Both the position numbers and the translations under genes were made by a program. Source: Candidatus Daviesbacteria bacterium (lineage in GTDB: Bacteria; Patescibacteriota; Microgenomatia; Daviesbacterales; UBA10151). From it: a stretch of DNA of 64,000 nt. Below the pieces are notes generated by a model. The model did not search any database. It was given only the letters and a program-made list of their open reading frames with translations, and had not been told where the DNA came from. The stretch lies in contig JACPKP010000009.1 in NCBI GenBank assembly GCA_016186955.1, positions 161,595 to 225,594 on the forward strand, in the 5' to 3' direction. Shown here piece after piece: positions 84 through 18,404 of this stretch. The first letter of the stretch is position 1. The number at the start of each line of letters is the position of its first letter.

Positions 84-548
84 ATGGCTTTGGGTGCTGT
101 GGTAAAAGTCTGGAAAAACGTTAATAGAAAAGATTTAGGAAAGATTATTAAAAGACTGGAAAAACAAGAGATGATTTCAATCAGAGAAAATGGAGAACAG
201 ATCACTATTGAAATCACCGATAGGGGCAAAAGACGTCTTCTGGAGTATGACTTTGAAAATATTCAATTGAAGTCCCAGAAAAGAGATGGGAAATGGAGAT
301 TAGTAATTTTTGATATCCCGGAAGATAAGAAAAGCGCGCGGGAGATCTTCAGAAAAAAACTTCTTCAGTTGGGTTTAATAAGATTGCAGGATAGCGTTTT
401 TGTTAGTGCATTTCCCTGTAAAAAGGAGGTTGATTTCCTGTGCCATTATTTGGGAATATCGGATTTTATTACTCTTTTATCTATTGATAGAATTGAAAGA
501 GGGGAAGAACTTATTTTTAAAAGATTTACCTTTGGAGACAATCAATAG
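84..548 (+). CDS. winged-helix DNA-binding protein with Cas2-like/PaaX-like C-terminal region; reading frame is open to window start, so the gene may begin upstream
   Basis: ORF 78-548 (TTG at 78, ATG at 84); in-frame with no stop back to position 3. N-terminal part looks like a wHTH (KIIKRLEKQEMISIRENGEQITIEITDRGKRRL). C-terminal 'WRLVIFDIPEDKK...REIFRKKLLQLGLIRLQDSVFV' resembles the Cas2/PaaX-C fold pattern. No CRISPR array adjacent. Confidence 0.35.
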   Translation: MALGAVVKVWKNVNRKDLGKIIKRLEKQEMISIRENGEQITIEITDRGKRRLLEYDFENIQLKSQKRDGKWRLVIFDIPEDKKSAREIFRKKLLQLGLIRLQDSVFVSAFPCKKEVDFLCHYLGISDFITLLSIDRIERGEELIFKRFTFGDNQ

Positions 549-657
549 CTATAGCAATTCATTGTACCCATTAATCAGCATAGACGAGGATATTGTATGA
601 GGATGATAGTTGTGCATGTTGGTTTGCCAGATTGACTGTAACTTTTTTGTAGCAGGT

Positions 658-1323
658 TCATTTTAAAGCTACAGCATGTTGGTTGGCATATCTGGGGTCT
701 GATTCTAAAGCAATTGCCTTAGCAAATAAGGGATGGTTTTTGGGATTTTGTTTGGGTAAGGTATTTAATTCCTGTTTCAGTTTGCCGACGCTGATTTGTT
801 CTTTTTCCTCAAGGAGGTTAATAAACTGAGCCTCTAAACTATCTGGTCCGTCTGAAAGCCAAATGTTTTTAGCTGTTTCTGCTGCAAACAACCCGAGACG
901 GAGATATTTTTGAATGGGTTTAGCGCTTAGATTAAGACACTCGTCTAAAAGCTCTGTAATTACATATTCCAGCCTTCCTCTGTACTCAAAATCAACCGGG
1001 TATTCAAATGACTCATACCGACTAAGGGTATTTTCATTGTTTTGTTTCATCCTCCCTAAACTGACATAGATATCTGCAAATAAGTTGTCGGGTGATCCAA
1101 CACTTTTGCCGTCGCTTCCGCCAAAACGGTTGGTATCGTAATACATTCCCCAAAAGGGCGCTGGCAGAAATTTGTAATTACGCTCTCCGCTAAAAACAGT
1201 GCGCACATATTTATTCAGTTGTTCCAGATCCATGTGGGTAATATCGTGAGCCATTGCAGCAGAGTCCCAGGTATCACCTGTGGGGTCTGTTTTCATTATC
1301 TCAGGTGTTAGTGTCATATGCAC
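658..1323 (-). CDS. hypothetical protein (221 aa), no recognisable motif
   Basis: Long ORF on minus strand, convergent with upstream + gene; no family recognised by eye. Confidence 0.45.
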   Translation of the reverse strand: MHMTLTPEIMKTDPTGDTWDSAAMAHDITHMDLEQLNKYVRTVFSGERNYKFLPAPFWGMYYDTNRFGGSDGKSVGSPDNLFADIYVSLGRMKQNNENTLSRYESFEYPVDFEYRGRLEYVITELLDECLNLSAKPIQKYLRLGLFAAETAKNIWLSDGPDSLEAQFINLLEEKEQISVGKLKQELNTLPKQNPKNHPLFAKAIALESDPRYANQHAVALK

Positions 1324-4481: not shown

Positions 4482-4784
4482 ATGAAATCAACTTTGATGA
4501 TAAATACAACAAAACAGGGTGAAGTTGAAGTTTCGCTGAAAGAGACAAAATTAGTACTTTTTAGCAAGCAGCAACTCGGTTCTCAAACCTTACTTCCCCT
4601 TATTAAAAATGCGCTGAAAAAAGCAGGGATATCTTTACAAGATTTAACCGGGATTAGTGTGGCAACAGGCCCGGGTTCTTTTACCGGTATCAGGGTTGGG
4701 GTTTCAGTTGCCAATGCCTTAGGGTTTGCTTTAGGGATTCATGTTAATAGGAAAAAGATGGAGACAGAGTTATTATATGATTAA
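4482..4784 (+). CDS. tsaB: TsaB/YeaZ-like protein, N-terminal domain only (truncated or minimal)
   Basis: Contains GPGSFTGIRVGVSVANALG motif typical of TsaB/Kae1 family; only 100 aa versus ~200+ aa normally. Confidence 0.5.
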   Translation: MKSTLMINTTKQGEVEVSLKETKLVLFSKQQLGSQTLLPLIKNALKKAGISLQDLTGISVATGPGSFTGIRVGVSVANALGFALGIHVNRKKMETELLYD

Positions 4785-4799
4785 TGAGTTAATGGTAAA

Positions 4800-5099
4800 T
4801 TAAGAAGAAGCTGCATAAGCATCACCCGCTATTGCCCAGTCAATTGGTATTCCATCCAAACCTTTTTCCAGGGTACTTAACTGTCTTTGAGAAGGGTTTT
4901 TAGCTAAACCCATTTTTATGGTAAAAGTGACTTCATTATTATTCCTACGTATATGTACACCCATTGTTTTGATTTCAGGGTAGCCTATTATCCAATTTCT
5001 GATTTTATTTACAAAATTAAAGCACAATAGTTTGTCTTCATATTTTTCTTGGACTTCCCGAACTTCCTGTATTGTTTTCTTAGGTTCCAGTCTTTCCAC
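4800..5099 (-). CDS. hypothetical protein (99 aa)
   Basis: ORF only; no motif recognised. Confidence 0.3.
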   Translation of the reverse strand: MERLEPKKTIQEVREVQEKYEDKLLCFNFVNKIRNWIIGYPEIKTMGVHIRRNNNEVTFTIKMGLAKNPSQRQLSTLEKGLDGIPIDWAIAGDAYAASS

Positions 5100-5161
5100 A
5101 GTATTAAGTATACTTTAAAATTGGTTTTTGTCAAATCCTGAACTATTACATCAATTTGTAC

Positions 5162-5301
5162 TTATTCAGTTTTCTCCAGTAAATACGTCATTGCGATCAC
5201 GTTCAGTTTTATGAACGTGAGAAGCAATCTGATTAGATCGCCACGGTCCGGTGTACATCGGACCTCGCGATGACGTTTGTTTTGGTAAGGACTGAATAGT
5301 T
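5162..5301. repeat. ~140-nt highly structured palindromic intergenic element (candidate MITE-like repeat or structured ncRNA)
   Basis: Outer inverted repeat cttattcagt (5162-5171) / actgaatag (5292-5300). Inner inverted repeat acgtcattgcg (5185-5195) / cgcgatgacgt (5267-5277). Perfect 9-bp hairpin TCACGTTCA-gtttta-TGAACGTGA (5198-5221). Perfect 6-bp hairpin GGTCCG-gtgtacat-CGGACC (5246-5265). Core ~50 nt recurs at 17720-17765. Confidence 0.5.
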
Positions 5302-5367
5302 ACATCCATCTTCAATGATTTGTTAACAGATTTGCAATATTAATCCCATAGTGGTATAATTCTCTTC

Positions 5368-6126
5368 ATGAGTGAACAGGATAACAGACCTTATTGGGAA
5401 AAACCTGAATTTTTCAAAGCTAAAGCGAAAAAAGAAAAATGGGGTCAACTTGCATGGACTTTAGATGATTTTTTAGCTATAAGAGGTATTCCAACTGATG
5501 ATTTAAAAAATAACCCTTCAAAAACTGAAGATGAATTAATGACAGCTGAGGAAATTGCAAATTTTTTAAGAGAAAATCAGGATTTAATTAATGAATTTAC
5601 TACAATACAGGATAATGATTTTGTAAAAAGTGCTTTACTGGAACTTACACATGAGTTTGCTTCTGTTTTGAAATATTTGAAAGCAATAGGAAGACTCCCG
5701 GAAGAGTTTGACCCTGAACCAGAAAAGCAGATTAGTTTGGGAATGAAACTTTCTGATATAAATTTTGAGATCTTAAAAGAAATTGTTCAACTTTATGAGG
5801 AAGTTGTAGGTGGGGATTATGCAAAACGTTTTAGAAGCCATGATCCTGGAAAAGCAGTAAAATATGTTGTGGAGGGTCCCGGAGAATGGAGGTTTGGTTC
5901 CAGATTAATTGATTCAAACGGTAGGCAGGATGTAAATGGAAAGCTTTTTTTAAGACCTCATCTTGCCAGGGATGAAAACAGCAATCTATTAAACGCTATA
6001 AGAATTTACTTTGACCCAAATACTATTGAAGGAGAAGAGGCAGATAAATTAAGGAAAGAATTTCAATATGCAGTGAATAGATTCTTAATCAAAAAGGGAT
6101 TAGAAGTAGAGCTCCCAAGAAGGTGA
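5368..6126 (+). CDS. hypothetical acidic protein (252 aa)
   Basis: ORF with plausible start after divergent intergenic region; no family recognised. Confidence 0.5.
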   Translation: MSEQDNRPYWEKPEFFKAKAKKEKWGQLAWTLDDFLAIRGIPTDDLKNNPSKTEDELMTAEEIANFLRENQDLINEFTTIQDNDFVKSALLELTHEFASVLKYLKAIGRLPEEFDPEPEKQISLGMKLSDINFEILKEIVQLYEEVVGGDYAKRFRSHDPGKAVKYVVEGPGEWRFGSRLIDSNGRQDVNGKLFLRPHLARDENSNLLNAIRIYFDPNTIEGEEADKLRKEFQYAVNRFLIKKGLEVELPRR

Positions 6127-6198
6127 TATTATGTATGGGTCGGTTTCTTGTTTCTTGACCCTTACCTACTCACTGGATTGAAATGATATACTTTAGTT

Positions 6199-7113
6199 GT
6201 GAACTGGAAACATCTTTTTTTGCCCCATTCGCAGACTCATAAAAAAGCCCATCTTATTTCAGCCCCGGCTTTGGCTGTTTACATAGCTATTTTTATTGTG
6301 TTGCAGATGGGTTTGCATCTTGTCTCAACAGTAAAGCCGGGGATTTTGGGAATTGCCTCAAATATAAGCCAACAGGAGCTGATAAAGTTAACAAACGCCA
6401 AGAGAGAGGCCTTGGGTTTGCCGCCTGTAATTGAAGACCCCAGGCTTGATGCAGCAGCTTTGGCCAAAGCACAAAACATGTTTGCCGAAAATTATTGGGC
6501 GCATTATTCCCCTTCCGGTAAAGACCCCTGGGGTTTTATTTTAGGGGCAGGTTACAGGTTTACAAATGCCGGTGAAAACTTAGCCAGGAATTTTTATAAC
6601 TCAAATGAAGTGGTGGATGCATGGATGGCATCACCAACGCATAGAGATAATATAATAAATTCGAAATACAGAAATATCGGAATGGCGGTTTTAGAGGGTA
6701 CCTTAAACGGCCAGCCGACTGTTTTAGTTGTCCAGGAGTTTGGTACACCGGTTGAGGCTATAGCACAGATCCCCAAGCCGCAGGTCAACCAGCCAACAAG
6801 CGAACCAATTTTACTTGCTGAAGCCCCAAAAGAGTCTACCCCGGCTGGTGTTTTTTCAGCCTCACAAAATCAACCCACACCTTTGGTAGTTAACAAAAAA
6901 ATTGCAAGTGGTGTATTGGTTGACCCGTATCTGCTAACAAAAAATATCGGGTTGGGTTTGTTGTTTTTGGTCGGTATACTAATAATTACTGATTTTTTTG
7001 TGCTCAGAAAAAGAGCAGTGGCCAGAGTTTCCTCAAGCCATTTCCCCCATCTTGCATTTTTGGCAGTTTTGACAAGCACACTAATTAATTCAAATATAGG
7101 TTCAATACTATGA
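6199..7113 (+). CDS. membrane-anchored CAP/SCP (YkwD-like) domain protein
   Basis: N-terminal TM; motifs ENYWAHYSPSG, GENLARNF, VVDAWMASPTHRDNII, YRNIGMAV typical of CAP/SCP-PR1 domain; Pro/Thr-rich linker; C-terminal TM. Confidence 0.6.
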   Translation: MNWKHLFLPHSQTHKKAHLISAPALAVYIAIFIVLQMGLHLVSTVKPGILGIASNISQQELIKLTNAKREALGLPPVIEDPRLDAAALAKAQNMFAENYWAHYSPSGKDPWGFILGAGYRFTNAGENLARNFYNSNEVVDAWMASPTHRDNIINSKYRNIGMAVLEGTLNGQPTVLVVQEFGTPVEAIAQIPKPQVNQPTSEPILLAEAPKESTPAGVFSASQNQPTPLVVNKKIASGVLVDPYLLTKNIGLGLLFLVGILIITDFFVLRKRAVARVSSSHFPHLAFLAVLTSTLINSNIGSIL

Positions 7114-9191: not shown

Positions 9192-9720
9192 TAATTTTAT
9201 AAAAGAAACTGAGCTTAATGGGGTTTTTATAATTGCCAGGCCCACTTTTGAGGATGAGAGGGGGTTTTTTAGAGAAAGTTTTAGGAAAAGAGATTTAGAT
9301 AAAAGGTTAGGATATGAATTTAACCCGGTGCAGTCAAACCATTCCAGAAGTAAAAAAGGAGTCCTGCGGGGGATCCATGTTGCCCCATGGCATAAACTGG
9401 CGACTGTAATTTCTGGTGCAGTCCAGCAGGTGGTGGTGGATTTAAGGAAAAAGTCACCCACTTTTGGTCAGCATATCTCCATGTTAATAAACGAAGAAAA
9501 CAGGATCAGTTTGTGTATTCCAGCAGGATGCGGCAATGCATATCTGGTTTTGTCGGATGGGGTGGACTATACATATCTTACTACTGATTATTGGTCTGCC
9601 GGAAAAGAATTGGGAATAATTTATAATGACCCAAAATTAAATATTAAATGGGAGATAGATTCTCCAATACTTTCTGAAAAAGATTTGGAAAACCCTCCAG
9701 TATCAGAAATTTTTCCATGA
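9184..9720 (+). CDS. rmlC: dTDP-4-dehydrorhamnose 3,5-epimerase
   Basis: 178 aa cupin; conserved RGIHV and YxxxxxDY-type region; ATGA overlap with rmlB. Confidence 0.8.
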   Translation: MDDNFIKETELNGVFIIARPTFEDERGFFRESFRKRDLDKRLGYEFNPVQSNHSRSKKGVLRGIHVAPWHKLATVISGAVQQVVVDLRKKSPTFGQHISMLINEENRISLCIPAGCGNAYLVLSDGVDYTYLTTDYWSAGKELGIIYNDPKLNIKWEIDSPILSEKDLENPPVSEIFP

Positions 9721-12903: not shown

Positions 12904-12935
12904 ATGTTGGAGAGATAATTATTAGTAAAAAACAT

Positions 12936-15871
12936 ATGGATGGAGAACTGCCCCCATCATCAAGATTTAGTAGTTTGAAAAGAATGTTTGGTAAAGGAGA
13001 ACCTCCGCAACCACCCCCGGTTGAAAATGGTAGACAGATTGAAGGAGTAGCAACAGACCAAAAATTACTGCAATACTTTTATAGACTTAAAGGTGTTGAT
13101 GCCCATGCAATTGCAACGGATAGGTTTTTAGATAAATCCCGTGATGAATATAATGCAGCTTGGTTAACTCGAGAATTGGTGCAAAATTTTGTTGACCATA
13201 ACCCTCAACATCCTGGGACACTTAATGGTGTGAGATTTACTCAAGAACCCCTTCAAAATGGTGGCATGCGCGTTCGTATAGAAGGAGATTGGCCATTTAA
13301 GACCCTACAGGTGTTTTGAGTCCACATTCAGATAAACCAGAAGATATGAATACTGCTGGAGGAAATGGTATTGGACTGAAGCAAACTGCGATACGCTTTA
13401 TGAGAGATTTTGGCGTTCAAAGATTTGAAATTGATGGTGAAGGTTGGAGCACAAATTATCGTTTGGCTAAAGCAGAAGATGTAAATAGAGAATGGGAAAC
13501 AATACCAGGACAAGTACTTTTACATAAAGTTAAACATGATTGGCTTCTCGCAGATATAAATGAAGCTCCAAGAACAGGTAAAAATGCCTACATAATTGAG
13601 ACAAGCAATCCTGATGTGATGAAAGCACTTCAACAGCTCCCTACCCTTGGTGTATCTAGCGAAAATCCCTACCTACAAAATATGGATTATCAAAATAAAT
13701 TTGGAGCGATAAAGTGGTTGCCCAAAGGAGAGGGATTAGAACCAACAAGAGGTCGTTTATTCATAAACGGACAGGTTATGAACTATAAAGACAAAGGCTC
13801 TACTGCAGAAGATTATTGGGTAGGCCCTGAATCCGTCACAATTCAGCTTAACAATTTAAAGTATAAAATGAGTATTGATAGGCCTCCGGTAAATCCCCTT
13901 GAATTGGGTCGTTATATGGATGAGCTGGTTCAAGCTATGTCAAAAGATGAAATGATAGATCAATTAAGGCGCTCTGAACACCTGTGGGCTGGACACGTAG
14001 ATGCAGGATATGGAACAGATAGAGAAGGAGCTTTTGTAGTTGTTGAGAAATTAGCAAGAACACTTCCTTATAAAGGCTATGACCGCAGAGAATGGCAGCA
14101 GCATTTTGCTGGTAAAAATTACATAGCTTGGGATAGAGGTGTAAGTGAAAGTCAGGTTAGAGAGCTAGAGAAGCAGGGTTTTATTGTTTGTCCTGGTTAC
14201 ATGGAGCAGGTGGGTATGTCCAGTGCAAGCAGTAAATTGAGCACAGTAGAAGCTGCAAGCAATGAAGTTCCTCAAATTCCACAACATAAAAGAGAACAGT
14301 TTGCTCAAGAATATGGTATGGAAGTAGCCCGTGAGGAATTTTCAGATGTTAAAGACTCCTCAGAGTTCATAGGCTTAATAAGCAAAAAATTGTCTGGGGA
14401 AGTTATAGCCATAGAAGGCAATGAAGGAAATCCCAATATAATTCGTCTAATGCTAAGAGGAGATATACCAAAGGAGCTACTATTTCACATTTTACCAAGA
14501 CCAAAAAAAGATGACCAAAAGTTGGTATATTTATTGCGGGGAATGGCAGCTTATGGATTAGGAAATGGAATGTTTAAGAAAATCTTTACATCTCAGGGAG
14601 ATTTTGTAACAACTTTTGGACTTGACTACGATTTCTTAACAAAAGAAAGCACTCTACTTGCCCGCAATATCCCTCATAAAAGTGACAGAGGAGCATTTGT
14701 AGAACTTGAGCTAGAGGATAAATATTTACAGGAGTTTCAAGATGCATTCAGAAAAGCAACTGAGACAAGAGCTAGTGGACAATCAGAGGTTTTATCAGGT
14801 GGATTCTCAACCCCAACTGGAGAACTAACTGCATCTCCAGCTAAAGATAGTAGTAGACCTGCGATAGAGGTAGATATTAACAAAGCTATTGAAGTTCAAG
14901 CATGGACTGCCGAACAGGAACAACTCTATAAAGCAGTTATAAGAAAAAACCCTACCGAGTTATCAGACCAAGATAAACTTATTATCCAGCAAAGAGAACA
15001 GCTAAAACAAGCATTCGGTAGTGTTCCAGTGGCACAGCCAGCAGCTCCAGATATTGGAAGAAAAGGGAATGTTATCCAAAAAGAAGCAACAATGTCTGAA
15101 GCAGAAAAAGCAAGAGTCGCACAAATGGAATCCCAAATACCAGGCATTGTTGATGCTGTCAATAAATTAGATGGGTTAGTTCCTGAAGCCAAGCCAGCAG
15201 CGCCCGCAGGACAAAGTCCTATTGAAAAATATATGCAATGGAGGAAAACAGATCAGTTTTATGGTCAGTTGGGAGATAGTGCTGGATATCTTACCGGGAG
15301 ACATCTTGTTGAATTAGTACATGAACAAAATCAAGCAGAAATCTCATCTGTACAAGTAGTAAGAAATGAAACATCCCAAGATCAGATTTTGAGGACACTA
15401 AGAGGAAAATTAAAGAAGGTTGTTGACCGAATGAATCCATCCGAAGATAAGGTTGATGATTTTGAAATTGTCCTTGAGCCAACAGAGAAGCAACTGGCAC
15501 AACTTGGTTTATTAAGATTATATTCACAACTTACTTCAGGTGTTCCATTACCAAACGACCTTTTCATCTACGAAGGAACTGGTAGCAAAGGAATCAATTT
15601 AGGACAAAAGGCAATAGGTATGCACGAATCTCTTTTTACTGTGAAGTTTACTGAAGCAATGAGAACATTTACTCATGAAATAGCTCATAATTATCCTAAA
15701 GCCGAAGGCCATGGGAACATGTTTCGTCACGCAATGGAATCTTTGTTTGCGACAACAATTGATAGAGTCACAAATATTGCTAGAAAACTAGAGTCTGGTC
15801 AAACAGCAACACCAGAAGAGCGGATTATTTTAGATATGCAAACAGAATGGGATAATATCCTCGCTGCATAA
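12936..15871 (+). pseudogene. ~980-aa ORF with GHKL-ATPase-like motifs (N-terminal) and HExxH motif (C-terminal), interrupted by a frameshift at a T4 run (13314-13317)
   Basis: ORF 12936-13319 ends ...FKTLQVF*; ORF 13316-15871 continues in the -1 frame, which is open only from 13300, so one extra T fuses them. N-box-like ELVQNFVDHN sits ~40 aa before G1-like GGNGIGLKQ. HEIAHNYPKAEGHGNMFRH lies near the C-terminus; the middle is Pro/Ala/Gln-rich. Confidence 0.45.
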
Positions 15872-15882
15872 ATAAGTTATTT

Positions 15883-16482: not shown

Positions 16483-16487
16483 GTTTT

Positions 16488-17213
16488 CTATTCAGGGTTT
16501 TTAAGTGTTTTTACCATTGCAAGCATTCTTGTTGCTAGTTTTTCTTTTGAATCTGGAGATAAAAAATCTATTGCCGCCTTTTTAGAGATAATTTTTGTTT
16601 GTTGTTCTTGACCAAGCTTAACAAGAATGAGACCAAGCATATACGCCTCGCCCTTACTTTGACTAAATGTATATGCAGGAGTTTGAGTAAAATCATCGGA
16701 TGAAATCTGTTGATTAGATTCAGATTCTTGAATTTTTAATAATCTGTTTACATATCCAAACTCATCAAATAATTTTTTTATATCAGAAGGAGTAATAATA
16801 TCTTTAGGTTTTAAGCGGAGTTCTCCAATTTTTAAATCAATATTTCCTTCTAAAGCTTCTTCAATTTTTTCTACGACATCTGTTTCATTCCATTCAATTA
16901 AAATCCACTTTAATATTGCAGCTTGTCCAGATTGAAATCCAGCTAAGCGAGTAGCCCTTGGGGTGTTGTTTTTTATTCTAGAAGAAGCTTTCGTTAAATT
17001 GTAATATTGTTCAAGAAATTCATTATAATCATTTAAAGTTAATTGTTTGATTTGATTTGGTTGTATTTCTTGATCAAATAAAAGACCTCCTAAATTTCGT
17101 ATTGGATTTTCAGTCAGTAATCCCTCTTGTTGTAGTCGCTCTTTTTCTCGTCGAAAGATTTCCTCTGCTTGTCTTACAGCTTCTTCTTTTTCTGAATTGT
17201 TTTCATCAGCCAT
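16488..17213 (-). CDS. hypothetical protein (241 aa), N-terminal charged/coiled-coil-like
   Basis: ORF only; tight 5-nt spacing to the downstream minus-strand gene. Confidence 0.45.
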   Translation of the reverse strand: MADENNSEKEEAVRQAEEIFRREKERLQQEGLLTENPIRNLGGLLFDQEIQPNQIKQLTLNDYNEFLEQYYNLTKASSRIKNNTPRATRLAGFQSGQAAILKWILIEWNETDVVEKIEEALEGNIDLKIGELRLKPKDIITPSDIKKLFDEFGYVNRLLKIQESESNQQISSDDFTQTPAYTFSQSKGEAYMLGLILVKLGQEQQTKIISKKAAIDFLSPDSKEKLATRMLAMVKTLKNPE

Positions 17214-17222
17214 AAGGATATT

Positions 17223-18404
17223 CTAATTAAAAACTCCTAAATTTGGAATAGGGGCGACATTTTCTAAGATGAAGTTTTGGGCATAGAGATAAATCCCTAA
17301 AGCTACTATTACAAAAGCAATTTTAAATTCTTTGCTGGTTAAAATCCTCTCAAAAGCTATCAGTAAAAATGGGAAAATTGGTAATGTGTAGCGGCTGATA
17401 TCTCTATGCACAACCATAATTGAAGCGACTATATAAATGAGTACAAAAAATGCCATTGGGTACAATTTTTGTTTGAGTAAATAAATTCCTCCAAAAAAGC
17501 CAAGAATAAAAATATAGACTATATCTTCAAGCCAGATCTCGCCCACCCAAAATGCATGTTTATCAAAAACCTGAAAAGGAGGTAAGGTAAGGTGGATATT
17601 ATCACCTGAATGAAAATAAGCCCAAAAGTCGTGGTAAGAAATCCCAAACCAGTAAAAAACTGTAAAAAGGCCGAGAGGAATAAGAAGAAGAGGATAGTAA
17701 GGAAGCACTCTTTTGATATTAGATTGCCACGTCACGTTCAGTAAATGAACGTGACTCGCAATGACAGACCATAGGATATAAATACCTAATGCAATAAAAA
17801 GCAAAATACCCGGTGGTCTGGTAAGCTGGGCAAAAAGGCCTGACAATCCGGTAAGGTAGATCCATAGCCATTTCCGGGATTGTTCAAATTTCATAAAGCA
17901 ATAAATCGCGGTGATTATGAAAAATATAAACATAGGTTCTGAGGATCCGACACTATGCACAATCAGCCATCTGGCAGGTAAAACTAAAAACAAAAGAGTG
18001 AGCCAAAGCGGATGGCTTGATAGTTTGAAGTCTCTAACCAGAAAATAAAAGGCTTTGGCTGAAAATAAAGTAAAAATAAAAGGAATAAAAAGCATTGATT
18101 TTAAAAACCCCAAAAATTGTGCGGCGGCCAGTATGAAAATTGAATAGAGAGGAAAATGGGAGGCATAATAAGTGGCAGGCAATGATTGAGGTAAATTAGC
18201 AATTAAGTTTGGATTGTAGAAACTTTTGGCTATGATGACATATTCCAACCCGTCAAAATTCCTGTAGATTGTATTGAATCCGTTGCTAAAATCAAGGTTG
18301 AAAAAACTTTTTATTGCAAGTAAATGAGGTAACCATATGAGTAATGTAATAATAGTTACTGCTAAATCTATTATTAAAAAAACTTTAAATACTTCTTTGT
18401 TCAT
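17223..18404 (-). CDS. polytopic membrane protein (393 aa), possible GT-C-type glycosyltransferase or Wzy-like polymerase
   Basis: More than 10 TM helices; divergently oriented to the GT2/GT-C array; contains in-frame copy of the palindromic element (17720-17765, encoding VIASHVHLLNVTW). Confidence 0.5.
   Translation of the reverse strand: MNKEVFKVFLIIDLAVTIITLLIWLPHLLAIKSFFNLDFSNGFNTIYRNFDGLEYVIIAKSFYNPNLIANLPQSLPATYYASHFPLYSIFILAAAQFLGFLKSMLFIPFIFTLFSAKAFYFLVRDFKLSSHPLWLTLLFLVLPARWLIVHSVGSSEPMFIFFIITAIYCFMKFEQSRKWLWIYLTGLSGLFAQLTRPPGILLFIALGIYILWSVIASHVHLLNVTWQSNIKRVLPYYPLLLIPLGLFTVFYWFGISYHDFWAYFHSGDNIHLTLPPFQVFDKHAFWVGEIWLEDIVYIFILGFFGGIYLLKQKLYPMAFFVLIYIVASIMVVHRDISRYTLPIFPFLLIAFERILTSKEFKIAFVIVALGIYLYAQNFILENVAPIPNLGVFN
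17720..17765 (-). repeat. second copy (inverted orientation) of the ~50-nt palindromic core element, embedded in-frame in a CDS
   Basis: Reverse complement reads gtcattgcga-GTCACGTTCA-tttac-TGAACGTGAC-gtggcaatct. Copy 1 reads gtcattgcga-TCACGTTCA-gtttta-TGAACGTGA-gaagcaatct at 5188-5239. Shared flanks gtcattgcga and gcaatct plus the identical 9-bp stem. Confidence 0.5.

Follow-up and report, generated by a model that had tools for sequence, protein, structure and literature searches.

The locus considered here raises the question of why a long palindrome, lying between two divergent genes at 5157-5304 of a 64,000-nucleotide stretch of a Candidatus Daviesbacteria contig (the whole stretch is called the window below), has a relative that is translated in frame within a membrane-protein gene, at 17223-18404. 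Our answer, which we hold with a probability of about 0.75, is that the intergenic palindrome, a dimer, and the copy in the gene belong to a widespread class of DNA hairpin repeats, Ssn-related and of the CGTC-tagged repetitive extragenic palindrome (REP) type, which would be recognised by a small GIY-YIG nuclease, Ssn.

The intergenic region contains a long imperfect inverted repeat, whose arms of 40 nt each, at 5157-5196 and 5265-5304, are 73% complementary. Inside it are two perfect hairpins, one with the 9-bp stem TCACGTTCA/TGAACGTGA (5197-5220), the other with the stem GGTCCG/CGGACC (5245-5264). The repeat and both hairpins had been described in a first-pass annotation of this DNA, and were found again here. 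Folding of the single strand 5150-5310 yielded -68.5 kcal/mol for the plus strand (z = -8.8 compared to shuffled sequences) and -60.8 kcal/mol for the minus strand (z = -7.8). Two sites in the window have the hairpin pattern TCACGTTCA-N-TGAACGTGA (0.00 expected), the second being 17732-17754, and when the spacer was compared with the rest of the window by short-word BLAST, the copy in the coding sequence was similar to both halves of the palindrome. The palindrome is not a single element: it is made of two inverted copies of one unit of 35-55 nt. The earlier description of an element of about 140 nt with a second copy in the gene is right in that about 45 nt recur there in frame, but the element is a dimer, and only one unit of it recurs. 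The features are as follows, R1 being the covariance model presented below.

5157-5185, no strand: left outer arm, outside the unit tags, pairing with 5276-5304 (inverted repeat and fold).
5186-5231, plus strand: unit L (R1 match at 5183-5234, 20.6 bits, E 0.003; sequence read).
5235-5275, minus strand: unit R' (R1 match at 5231-5278, 40.2 bits, E 1.5e-8; exact match to the scan pattern).
5276-5304, no strand: right outer arm, extending the palindrome (inverted repeat and fold).
17721-17765, minus strand: unit B (R1 match at 17717-17769, 37.8 bits, E 6.8e-8; reading frame and orthologue DNA).
17223-18404, minus strand: host gene of unit B, encoding a membrane glycosyltransferase of the GT39/PMT family (Pfam PF02366).

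Unit L is laid out as CGTC-ATTGC-GA-(TCACGTTCA GTTTTA TGAACGTGA)-GAA-GCAAT-CT, with the tag CGTC at 5186-5189, a lower stem formed by ATTGC (5190-5194) and GCAAT (5224-5228), the apex at 5197-5220, and the tail CTG. On the minus strand, unit R' reads CGTC-ATCGC-GAG-(GTCCGATG TACA CCGGAC)-C-GTG-GCGAT-CT, its apical hairpin being GTCCGATGTACACCGGAC. Unit B, on the sense strand of the GT39 gene, reads (T)GTC-ATTGC-GAG-(TCACGTTCA TTTAC TGAACGTGA)-C-GTG-GCAAT-CT. The central hairpins of L and R' are wholly different, while the flanks are conserved, and the lower stem shows a compensatory change, ATTGC/GCAAT in L versus ATCGC/GCGAT, the C-G variant, in R'. The flank of unit L is a divergent variant, with GA...GAA instead of GAG...CGTG. 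The 9-mer TTCAGTTTT has 10 sites in the window, compared to 2.2 expected, and two of these lie in the element, one in the outer arm (5165-5173), the other (5202-5210) overlapping the last bases of the 5' arm of the hairpin stem and continuing into the loop.

The general plan of the unit is an unpaired YGTC tag, a lower stem of 5 bp (ATYGC/GCRAT), a purine-rich internal loop (GAG/GTG), an apical hairpin, and a C-T tail, which is also unpaired. Genome contigs, with one genome per species, and viral contigs were scanned for the exact pattern GTCATYGCGAG-N12-30-GTGGCRATCT. It was found in at least 119 stretches of genome contigs, compared to about 20 by chance according to our own estimate, and in at least 120 stretches of viral contigs, so that further copies, for which the first-pass annotation had proposed to look, are many. 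Among the matches listed, host groups include Dehalococcoidia, Oscillospiraceae, several proteobacterial classes, Rickettsiales (loci L033, L042 and L049), Bacteroidota, Armatimonadota and Atribacterota, and, within the Candidate Phyla Radiation (CPR), Roizman-, Collier- and Daviesbacteria. In these same listed matches, covariation between Y and R is nearly complete, and the centres, which are short hairpins, have sequences unrelated to one another; the commonest is GAGCGNAGCGAC. The apical hairpin can have almost any sequence or length, with a stem of 2-11 bp and a loop of 3 to more than 10 nt, and the tail is C-T-(C). BLAST against plasmids gave six matches, all unannotated, and a literature search with the DNA words of the repeat and its peptide translations returned unrelated primers only.

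The covariance model R1 was built with 14 units, all from other organisms or phyla, and run with filters off. It found exactly three sites in the window, namely L, R' and B, the next best one scoring 10.6 bits (E 1.4), and a relaxed scan of the 64 kb revealed no further convincing unit. In 100 fetched loci, R1 found 209 sites. Pairing was observed in 97.1% of the cells, compared to 80.5% in shuffles, slid controls collapsed, and both sides had changed in 9 of 11 pairs; as the alignment was fitted to R1 this count leans to structure, but the covariation of the lower stem is already present in the unfitted pattern matches. The variable pair of the lower stem is U-A in 128 cases, C-G in 18, and unpaired in none. 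Of 146 rows, 144 have A-U as the first pair, and all have U-A as the second; other variants of the lower stem are ATTCC/GGAAT, ATTTC/GAAAT and ATCCT/AGGAT. Invariant in units are GTC, the C after the palindrome, and the A-T foot of the stem. The base before GTC, examined in 139 flanks, is a pyrimidine in 94% (C 37%, T 57%; L and R' have CGTC, B has TGTC), and the base at +1 after ATCT is C in 66%. Since only these positions, -1 and +1, are conserved beyond the unit, it is self-contained and not part of a larger miniature inverted-repeat transposable element (MITE).

About 70% of the units lie outside open reading frames (ORFs) of 100 aa or more. In genomes, the gene upstream of the unit is co-oriented with it in 71 cases and opposed in 40, and intergenic regions with units are flanked by convergent genes in 28 cases versus 9 for divergent genes. 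Adjacent units are mostly inverted pairs with the tags outside, separated by spacers of 6-50 nt: among neighbouring units within 120 nt, 82 pairs have their tags outside ('head-head', HH), 30 have them inside (TT) and 27 are in tandem (HT). The dimer of the window is of the HH type, the family's commonest arrangement. In the complementarity of its outer flanks, 0.63, it ranks first among 93 dimers with their tags outside; their median, 0.38, is no different from that of random sequences. A REP- or MITE-like repeat tolerated in a coding sequence, the leading possibility raised by the first-pass annotation, is thus supported by a large dispersed family of hairpins with the hallmarks of CGTC-REPs.

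These hallmarks were established by Di Nocera, De Gregorio & Rocco (2013, BMC Genomics 14:522; PMC3733652). CGTC-tagged REPs, which comprise families CGTC-1 to CGTC-4 in 5 phyla and include RPE-4 and RPE-6 of Rickettsia and dRS3 of Neisseria, have an unpaired CGTC tag (often TGTC, with CCTC allowed), A-T at stem positions 1-2, a continuous stem of 8-9 bp, a loop of 4-5 nt and a 3-nt CCA tail. HH dimers, often heterodimers, predominate and TT and HT ones are rare; the repeats lie between ORFs of same or convergent direction, with intragenic copies in frame, and no transposase is linked to them (PMC3733652). The units described here have in common with them the tag, the first A-T stem pairs, the short tail, the prevalence of HH dimers, mainly convergent or same-direction intergenic sites, in-frame intragenic copies, and the lack of a flanked transposase. 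Being of the ATTGCGAG type, they differ by a bipartite stem, a hypervariable apex and a CTC-like tail.

One member of this class has a known enzyme. The Neisseria Transformation Sequence (NTS), CGTCATTCCCGCGMAVGCGGGAATCYRG, which contains dRS3, is bound by SsnA only as single-stranded DNA and on one strand, not as double-stranded DNA or RNA (Chenal et al. 2025, Nat Commun 16:2388; PMC11893778). SsnA is a single-domain GIY-YIG nuclease of 94 aa, which cuts a few nt upstream; cleavage depends on the three nt before the palindrome (GTC) and binding on the C after it, whereas the loop is dispensable and the stem extendable, and in many phyla such motifs stand on either side of ssnA genes (PMC11893778). 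Our units are likewise oriented hairpins in many copies, with an unpaired (C)GTC tag, a stem that starts with A-T, T-A and ends with A-A-T, a C right after the palindrome, tolerance to loop and stem extension, and single-domain GIY-YIG genes of about 95 aa flanked by the repeats. Differences lie in the stem, with ATYGC, the GAG/GTG loop and a variable hairpin in place of the continuous ATTCCCGCG stem, and in the hosts, which here include Patescibacteria/CPR, Chloroflexota, Bacillota and phage contigs. The novelty is modest: the type of repeat was already known, and what is new is a variant, missed by the published pattern for Ssn-related motifs (SRM), in CPR and phage contigs.

The GIY-YIG genes were not seen at once. 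An all-against-all BLASTP of the genes neighbouring 148 units produced no recurrent family; Fur, RNase III, SerRS and ABC proteins were each present in 3-5 loci, which we judged to be chance. The small GIY-YIG genes had escaped this clustering, and were recovered by motif search and tblastn. GIY-YIG ORFs of about 95 aa adjoin units in nine loci, mostly on both sides, and three of these proteins were confirmed as members of Pfam PF01541 (E about 1e-16). Examples are:

Locus L015: GIY-YIG gene at 6551-6826 (minus strand), units at 6440-6481 (plus) and 6877-6917 (minus).
Locus L250: GIY-YIG gene at 6759-7034 (plus strand), units at 6708-6750 (plus) and 7044-7086 (minus).
Locus L340: GIY-YIG gene at 6029-6307 (minus strand), units on both sides.
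Locus L158, a viral contig: GIY-YIG gene at 507-776 (minus strand), near the start of the locus, units on one side only.

The protein of locus L340 has 1,688 homologues and, of those among the best 120 that carry a source name, most are from Shapiro-, Levy-, Davies-, Uhrbacteria and Patescibacteria. Five homologues were looked up, and units adjoin every one of them:

P0150 (L367), from Daviesbacteria: CGTCATTGCGAG...CGTGGCAATCT 15 nt upstream, more units downstream.
P0165 (L373, 1445-1834): one unit on each side; the gene, on the opposite strand, separates rplC from rpsJ in the S10 ribosomal-protein operon of a CPR-like genome.
P0213 and P0217 (L375 and L376): one unit upstream, a tandem array downstream.
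P0134 (L372): flanked by variant units, with ATTCC/GGAAT and ATCCT/AGGAT stems.

Daviesbacteria other than the one studied here therefore encode a GIY-YIG Ssn-like gene, and in this group too it stands beside units. The arrays of L375 (1898-2135) and L376 (1902-2294), just downstream of the Ssn-like genes, consist of five to six units on the same strand, with a period of 51 nt. Most homologues among the best 120 are on contigs of 0.5-3 kb, as would be the case if assemblies broke at the flanking repeats. One of the GIY-YIG copies from Daviesbacteria is annotated 'excinuclease ABC subunit C', probably a mislabel.

By analogy with SsnA, the following course of events can be proposed. Whenever replication, DNA uptake or repair leaves the GTCAT strand single-stranded, the unit would fold. 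A small nuclease of the Ssn family, with GIY-YIG as its single domain and its gene outside the window, would then recognise the base of the stem, the GTC tag and the C after the palindrome, and nick the strand a few nt 5' of the tag. Having no part in recognition, the apical hairpin would be free to vary. An invariant GTC, A-T foot and C after the palindrome, together with a free apex, form the pattern expected if the enzyme reads the foot of the hairpin only. What the data establish is the anatomy of the units, their membership of the family, their covariation, dimers and distribution, and their position beside GIY-YIG genes, in Daviesbacteria too; that the organism has an Ssn homologue which would bind and cut the units, and how copies would spread, is inferred. 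The copies of the window themselves are most likely passive, selfish or domesticated repeats, tolerated between the two promoter-like sites and in a variable loop of a protein, with no dedicated local function.

Several observations weigh against this interpretation. No GIY-YIG/Ssn gene was found within the 64-kb window by motif search and tblastn. The SRM pattern, HGTCWYN(0-2)YYVSBRHN(0-5)WNVSBRGN(0-2)RNCYNB, had no match in the window and recovered none of the three units, although the same regular expression matches the model NTS; the units agree with it in the tag, HGTCWY, and depart from it in the pyrimidine-rich stem. SsnA activity is lost when the palindrome sequence is changed, and the NTS-ssnA-NTS layout was likened to an insertion sequence, transposition being not demonstrated there (PMC11893778). 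The approximately 2:1 preference for sites downstream of a co-oriented gene would also fit a role at the RNA level. Finally, the dimer of the window has complementary outer flanks, unlike other dimers, and sits between divergent genes, the rarest intergenic class, both of which leave room for a local role.

We now turn to the copy that is translated. The GT39 protein is a 100% match to a Candidatus Daviesbacteria protein, and the codons of unit B, GTC ATT GCG AGT CAC GTT CAT TTA CTG AAC GTG ACG TGG CAA TCT, give VIASHVHLLNVTWQS. In the alignment of this region, the unit falls in a hypervariable loop, after the motif RPPGILLF...ILW; in 60 homologues, this loop varies in length by as much as about 20 residues. 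The copy had initially been seen as an in-frame insert of 13 aa in a membrane-protein gene: the frame is indeed kept, and the gene is of the GT39 family, but because the loop is so variable in length, the copy is not a clean insert. Orthologues, whose comparison had been suggested, differ at this site. The orthologue in L001 (89% aa identity) has the same unit with identical flanks and a decayed stem (R1 33.9 bits). That in L002 (83%), at 1042-1080 of the locus, a position orthologous to 17721-17765 of the window, has identical flanks and a different, perfect 7-bp hairpin, CTCCGAT-AAAA-ATCGGAG, also in frame (27.3 bits). In L003 (81%), no recognisable unit was found at the GT39 position. As the nearest orthologues carry the unit at the same position, it is ancestral to a small clade rather than a private insertion. 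Units at this site stay in frame with lengths of 45 and 39 nt. A comparable situation is that of the Rickettsia palindromic elements (RPE), which are translated in frame within functional genes, in apparently tolerant surface or loop regions, as here; RPE-1 is a longer insertion, whereas here it is a single unit of 39-45 nt.

To judge from its sequence, the apical hairpin of L002 was replaced rather than slowly point-mutated. Units L and B, for their part, have the 9-bp apical stem in common although their flanks are different sub-variants. About 18 low-GC metagenome contigs also contain this apical hairpin between unit flanks, always outside GT39 genes and usually as one partner of a tags-outside heterodimer; it is thus a recurrent sequence type of the repeat family. 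The hairpin swap in L002, the stem common to L and B, and the identical apex in unrelated low-GC contigs lead to a tentative idea, which we consider rather unlikely: the units may represent a distinct class of Ssn-type sites across many bacterial phyla and phages, with recognition by the foot only and an apex that is a cassette actively exchanged between copies. Only one feature still calls for an explanation: at an orthologous site, and in frame, the apical hairpin has been replaced rapidly.

The surroundings of the dimer bear on whether it could act locally. It is bounded by two promoter-like sites:

5107-5134, minus strand: TTGACA-16-TATACT, 11/12, promoter-like site for ORF 4800-5099 and left bound of the dimer (consensus match only).
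5331-5360, plus strand: TTGCAA-17-TATAAT with TG, promoter-like site for ORF 5368-6126 and right bound of the dimer (consensus match only).

The dimer fills the spacer between the -35 boxes of these divergent sites, and is for this reason probably not transcribed; one terminator-like site lies within it, without a full T tract. It is part of a block of 1.4 kb (4788-6182), which consists of the 99-aa ORF 4800-5099 (minus strand), the dimer, and the 252-aa ORF 5368-6126 (plus strand). The syntenic relative L001 lacks this block, and its TsaB fragment directly abuts a CAP-domain gene. In a search of 5.8 billion proteins, the only match to the 252-aa protein was itself, which makes it an ORFan; four other contigs with this ORF belong to the same population and have an identical spacer. 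The missing block in L001 and the ORFan protein place the dimer in a lineage-specific block. The TsaB-like ORF at 4482-4784 is only 100 aa long and corresponds to the N-terminal part of PF00814, the short form being also present in L001. Two other blocks, 12904-15882 (with the 851-aa ORF 13316-15871) and 16483-17226 (with the 241-aa ORF 16488-17213), are also absent from L001, at otherwise collinear positions, and the second of these directly adjoins the GT39 gene carrying unit B. A scan of the window for tRNA and tmRNA genes found none.

Such a setting would suit a double-stranded operator or cruciform regulating the two divergent ORFan genes, 4800-5099 and 5368-6126: nearly the whole spacer between the promoter-like sites is occupied, the outer flanks are unusually complementary for the family, and the entire 1.4-kb block is lineage-specific. 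We nevertheless regard this as improbable. The same units are present in a coding sequence and in hundreds of unrelated contexts, the variable spacing between the conserved half-sites, 12-30 nt and more, is unsuited to a dimeric binder of double-stranded DNA, and no regulator gene is adjacent.

A second candidate, to which we give an equally small chance, is a strict REPIN, that is, a doublet of REPs mobilised by a REP-associated tyrosine transposase (RAYT) or an IS200-like Y1 (HUH) transposase acting on single-stranded DNA hairpins. Its architecture is that of the units here, two short hairpins in inverted order able to form a long one, dispersed and mostly extragenic, as is also the case for bacterial interspersed mosaic elements (BIMEs), and recognition of single-stranded DNA by a small nuclease, predicted for the units here, would be a further likeness. 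However, the REPIN-RAYT tag is GTAG (GT[AG]G) and its enzyme an HUH Y1 transposase, whereas the units here have YGTC and GIY-YIG genes adjoin them in nine loci. CGTC repeats were reported not to flank tyrosine-transposase genes (PMC3733652). When IS200 TnpA and a RAYT sequence were used as queries in tblastn, nothing was found in the window, and about 360 loci (L001-L366) gave a single weak match, about 800 nt from a unit. Moreover, RAYT/REPIN systems are lineage-specific and vertically inherited, and the flanks of the units are identical across phyla and phages.

Whether the hairpin acts as RNA or as DNA was approached in several ways. Rfam was searched with the dimer region at a permissive E-value, and the best family, RgsA, scored 23.7 bits for a threshold of 88.4; at gathering thresholds, 20 other loci gave nothing overlapping the units. 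Apical stems are nearly all perfect Watson-Crick, unlike a drifting RNA helix, and their mismatches (2 G-T, 2 A-C) show no G-U excess, a count that, with so few mismatches in the stems, is uninformative as an RNA-or-DNA test. The loops show a strong strand asymmetry: on the GTCAT strand, 25 of 73 are GNA triloops closed by C-G, and the complementary TNC loops are never seen. The sequence d(GCGNAGC) is a classic ultra-stable DNA mini-hairpin. A strand test based on GC skew was not significant in genomes; it was significant for the viral loci, but these are not independent. Viral copies have no orientation bias relative to ORFs. At one intergenic spot of related phage contigs, the unit is present in L148 and not in L196 or L218, and homology between the contigs breaks at the edges of the unit. 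A second hairpin repeat, the GTAG-tagged TTTAATCTTTCGTAGTCCGGGCCTTTAGGCCCG, adjoins the unit in L148 (about 9510-9620), and at the same intergenic spot the three related contigs have 2, 1 and 0 copies of it. Hammerhead, K-turn, attC, CRISPR-repeat, terminator and promoter readings were considered by eye and rejected, the core sequences or fixed spacing being absent.

The promoter setting, the Watson-Crick apices, the asymmetry of the loops, the lack of orientation bias in viruses and the phage polymorphism favour a single-stranded DNA element over an RNA. A structured noncoding RNA, be it an intergenic small RNA (whose 45 nt in common with the GT39 mRNA might allow the two to pair) or an RNA element that stabilises the transcript or terminates it in cis, would account for the very stable fold, the strong covariation and the preference for sites downstream of co-oriented genes, and Di Nocera et al. 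suggested that many REPs act as RNA (PMC3733652), but it is the least probable of the alternatives, given the negative Rfam searches, the points just listed, the arbitrary contexts of the units, with no conserved neighbour, and the fact that SsnA does not bind RNA (PMC11893778). Neither of the two RNA proposals of the first-pass annotation, a motif captured by the coding sequence and a small RNA gene in the spacer, is supported.

With CGTC-REP units recognised by an Ssn-type nuclease as the preferred explanation, the palindrome and its in-frame twin receive a concrete identity and a candidate partner enzyme, and the catalogue of the Ssn/NTS system and of CGTC-REPs is extended to Patescibacteria and phage contigs. 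For annotation, the units explain many spurious small ORFs and length-variable protein loops, and should not be taken for small RNA genes. If the turnover of apical hairpins is active, it would constitute a new route for generating peptide insertions. Should apices truly be exchanged between copies, short peptide segments of proteins could be written and rewritten by the system without loss of the frame. CPR bacteria are thought to rely on DNA uptake, and in them such a system could gate incoming single-stranded DNA, as SsnA does in Neisseria.

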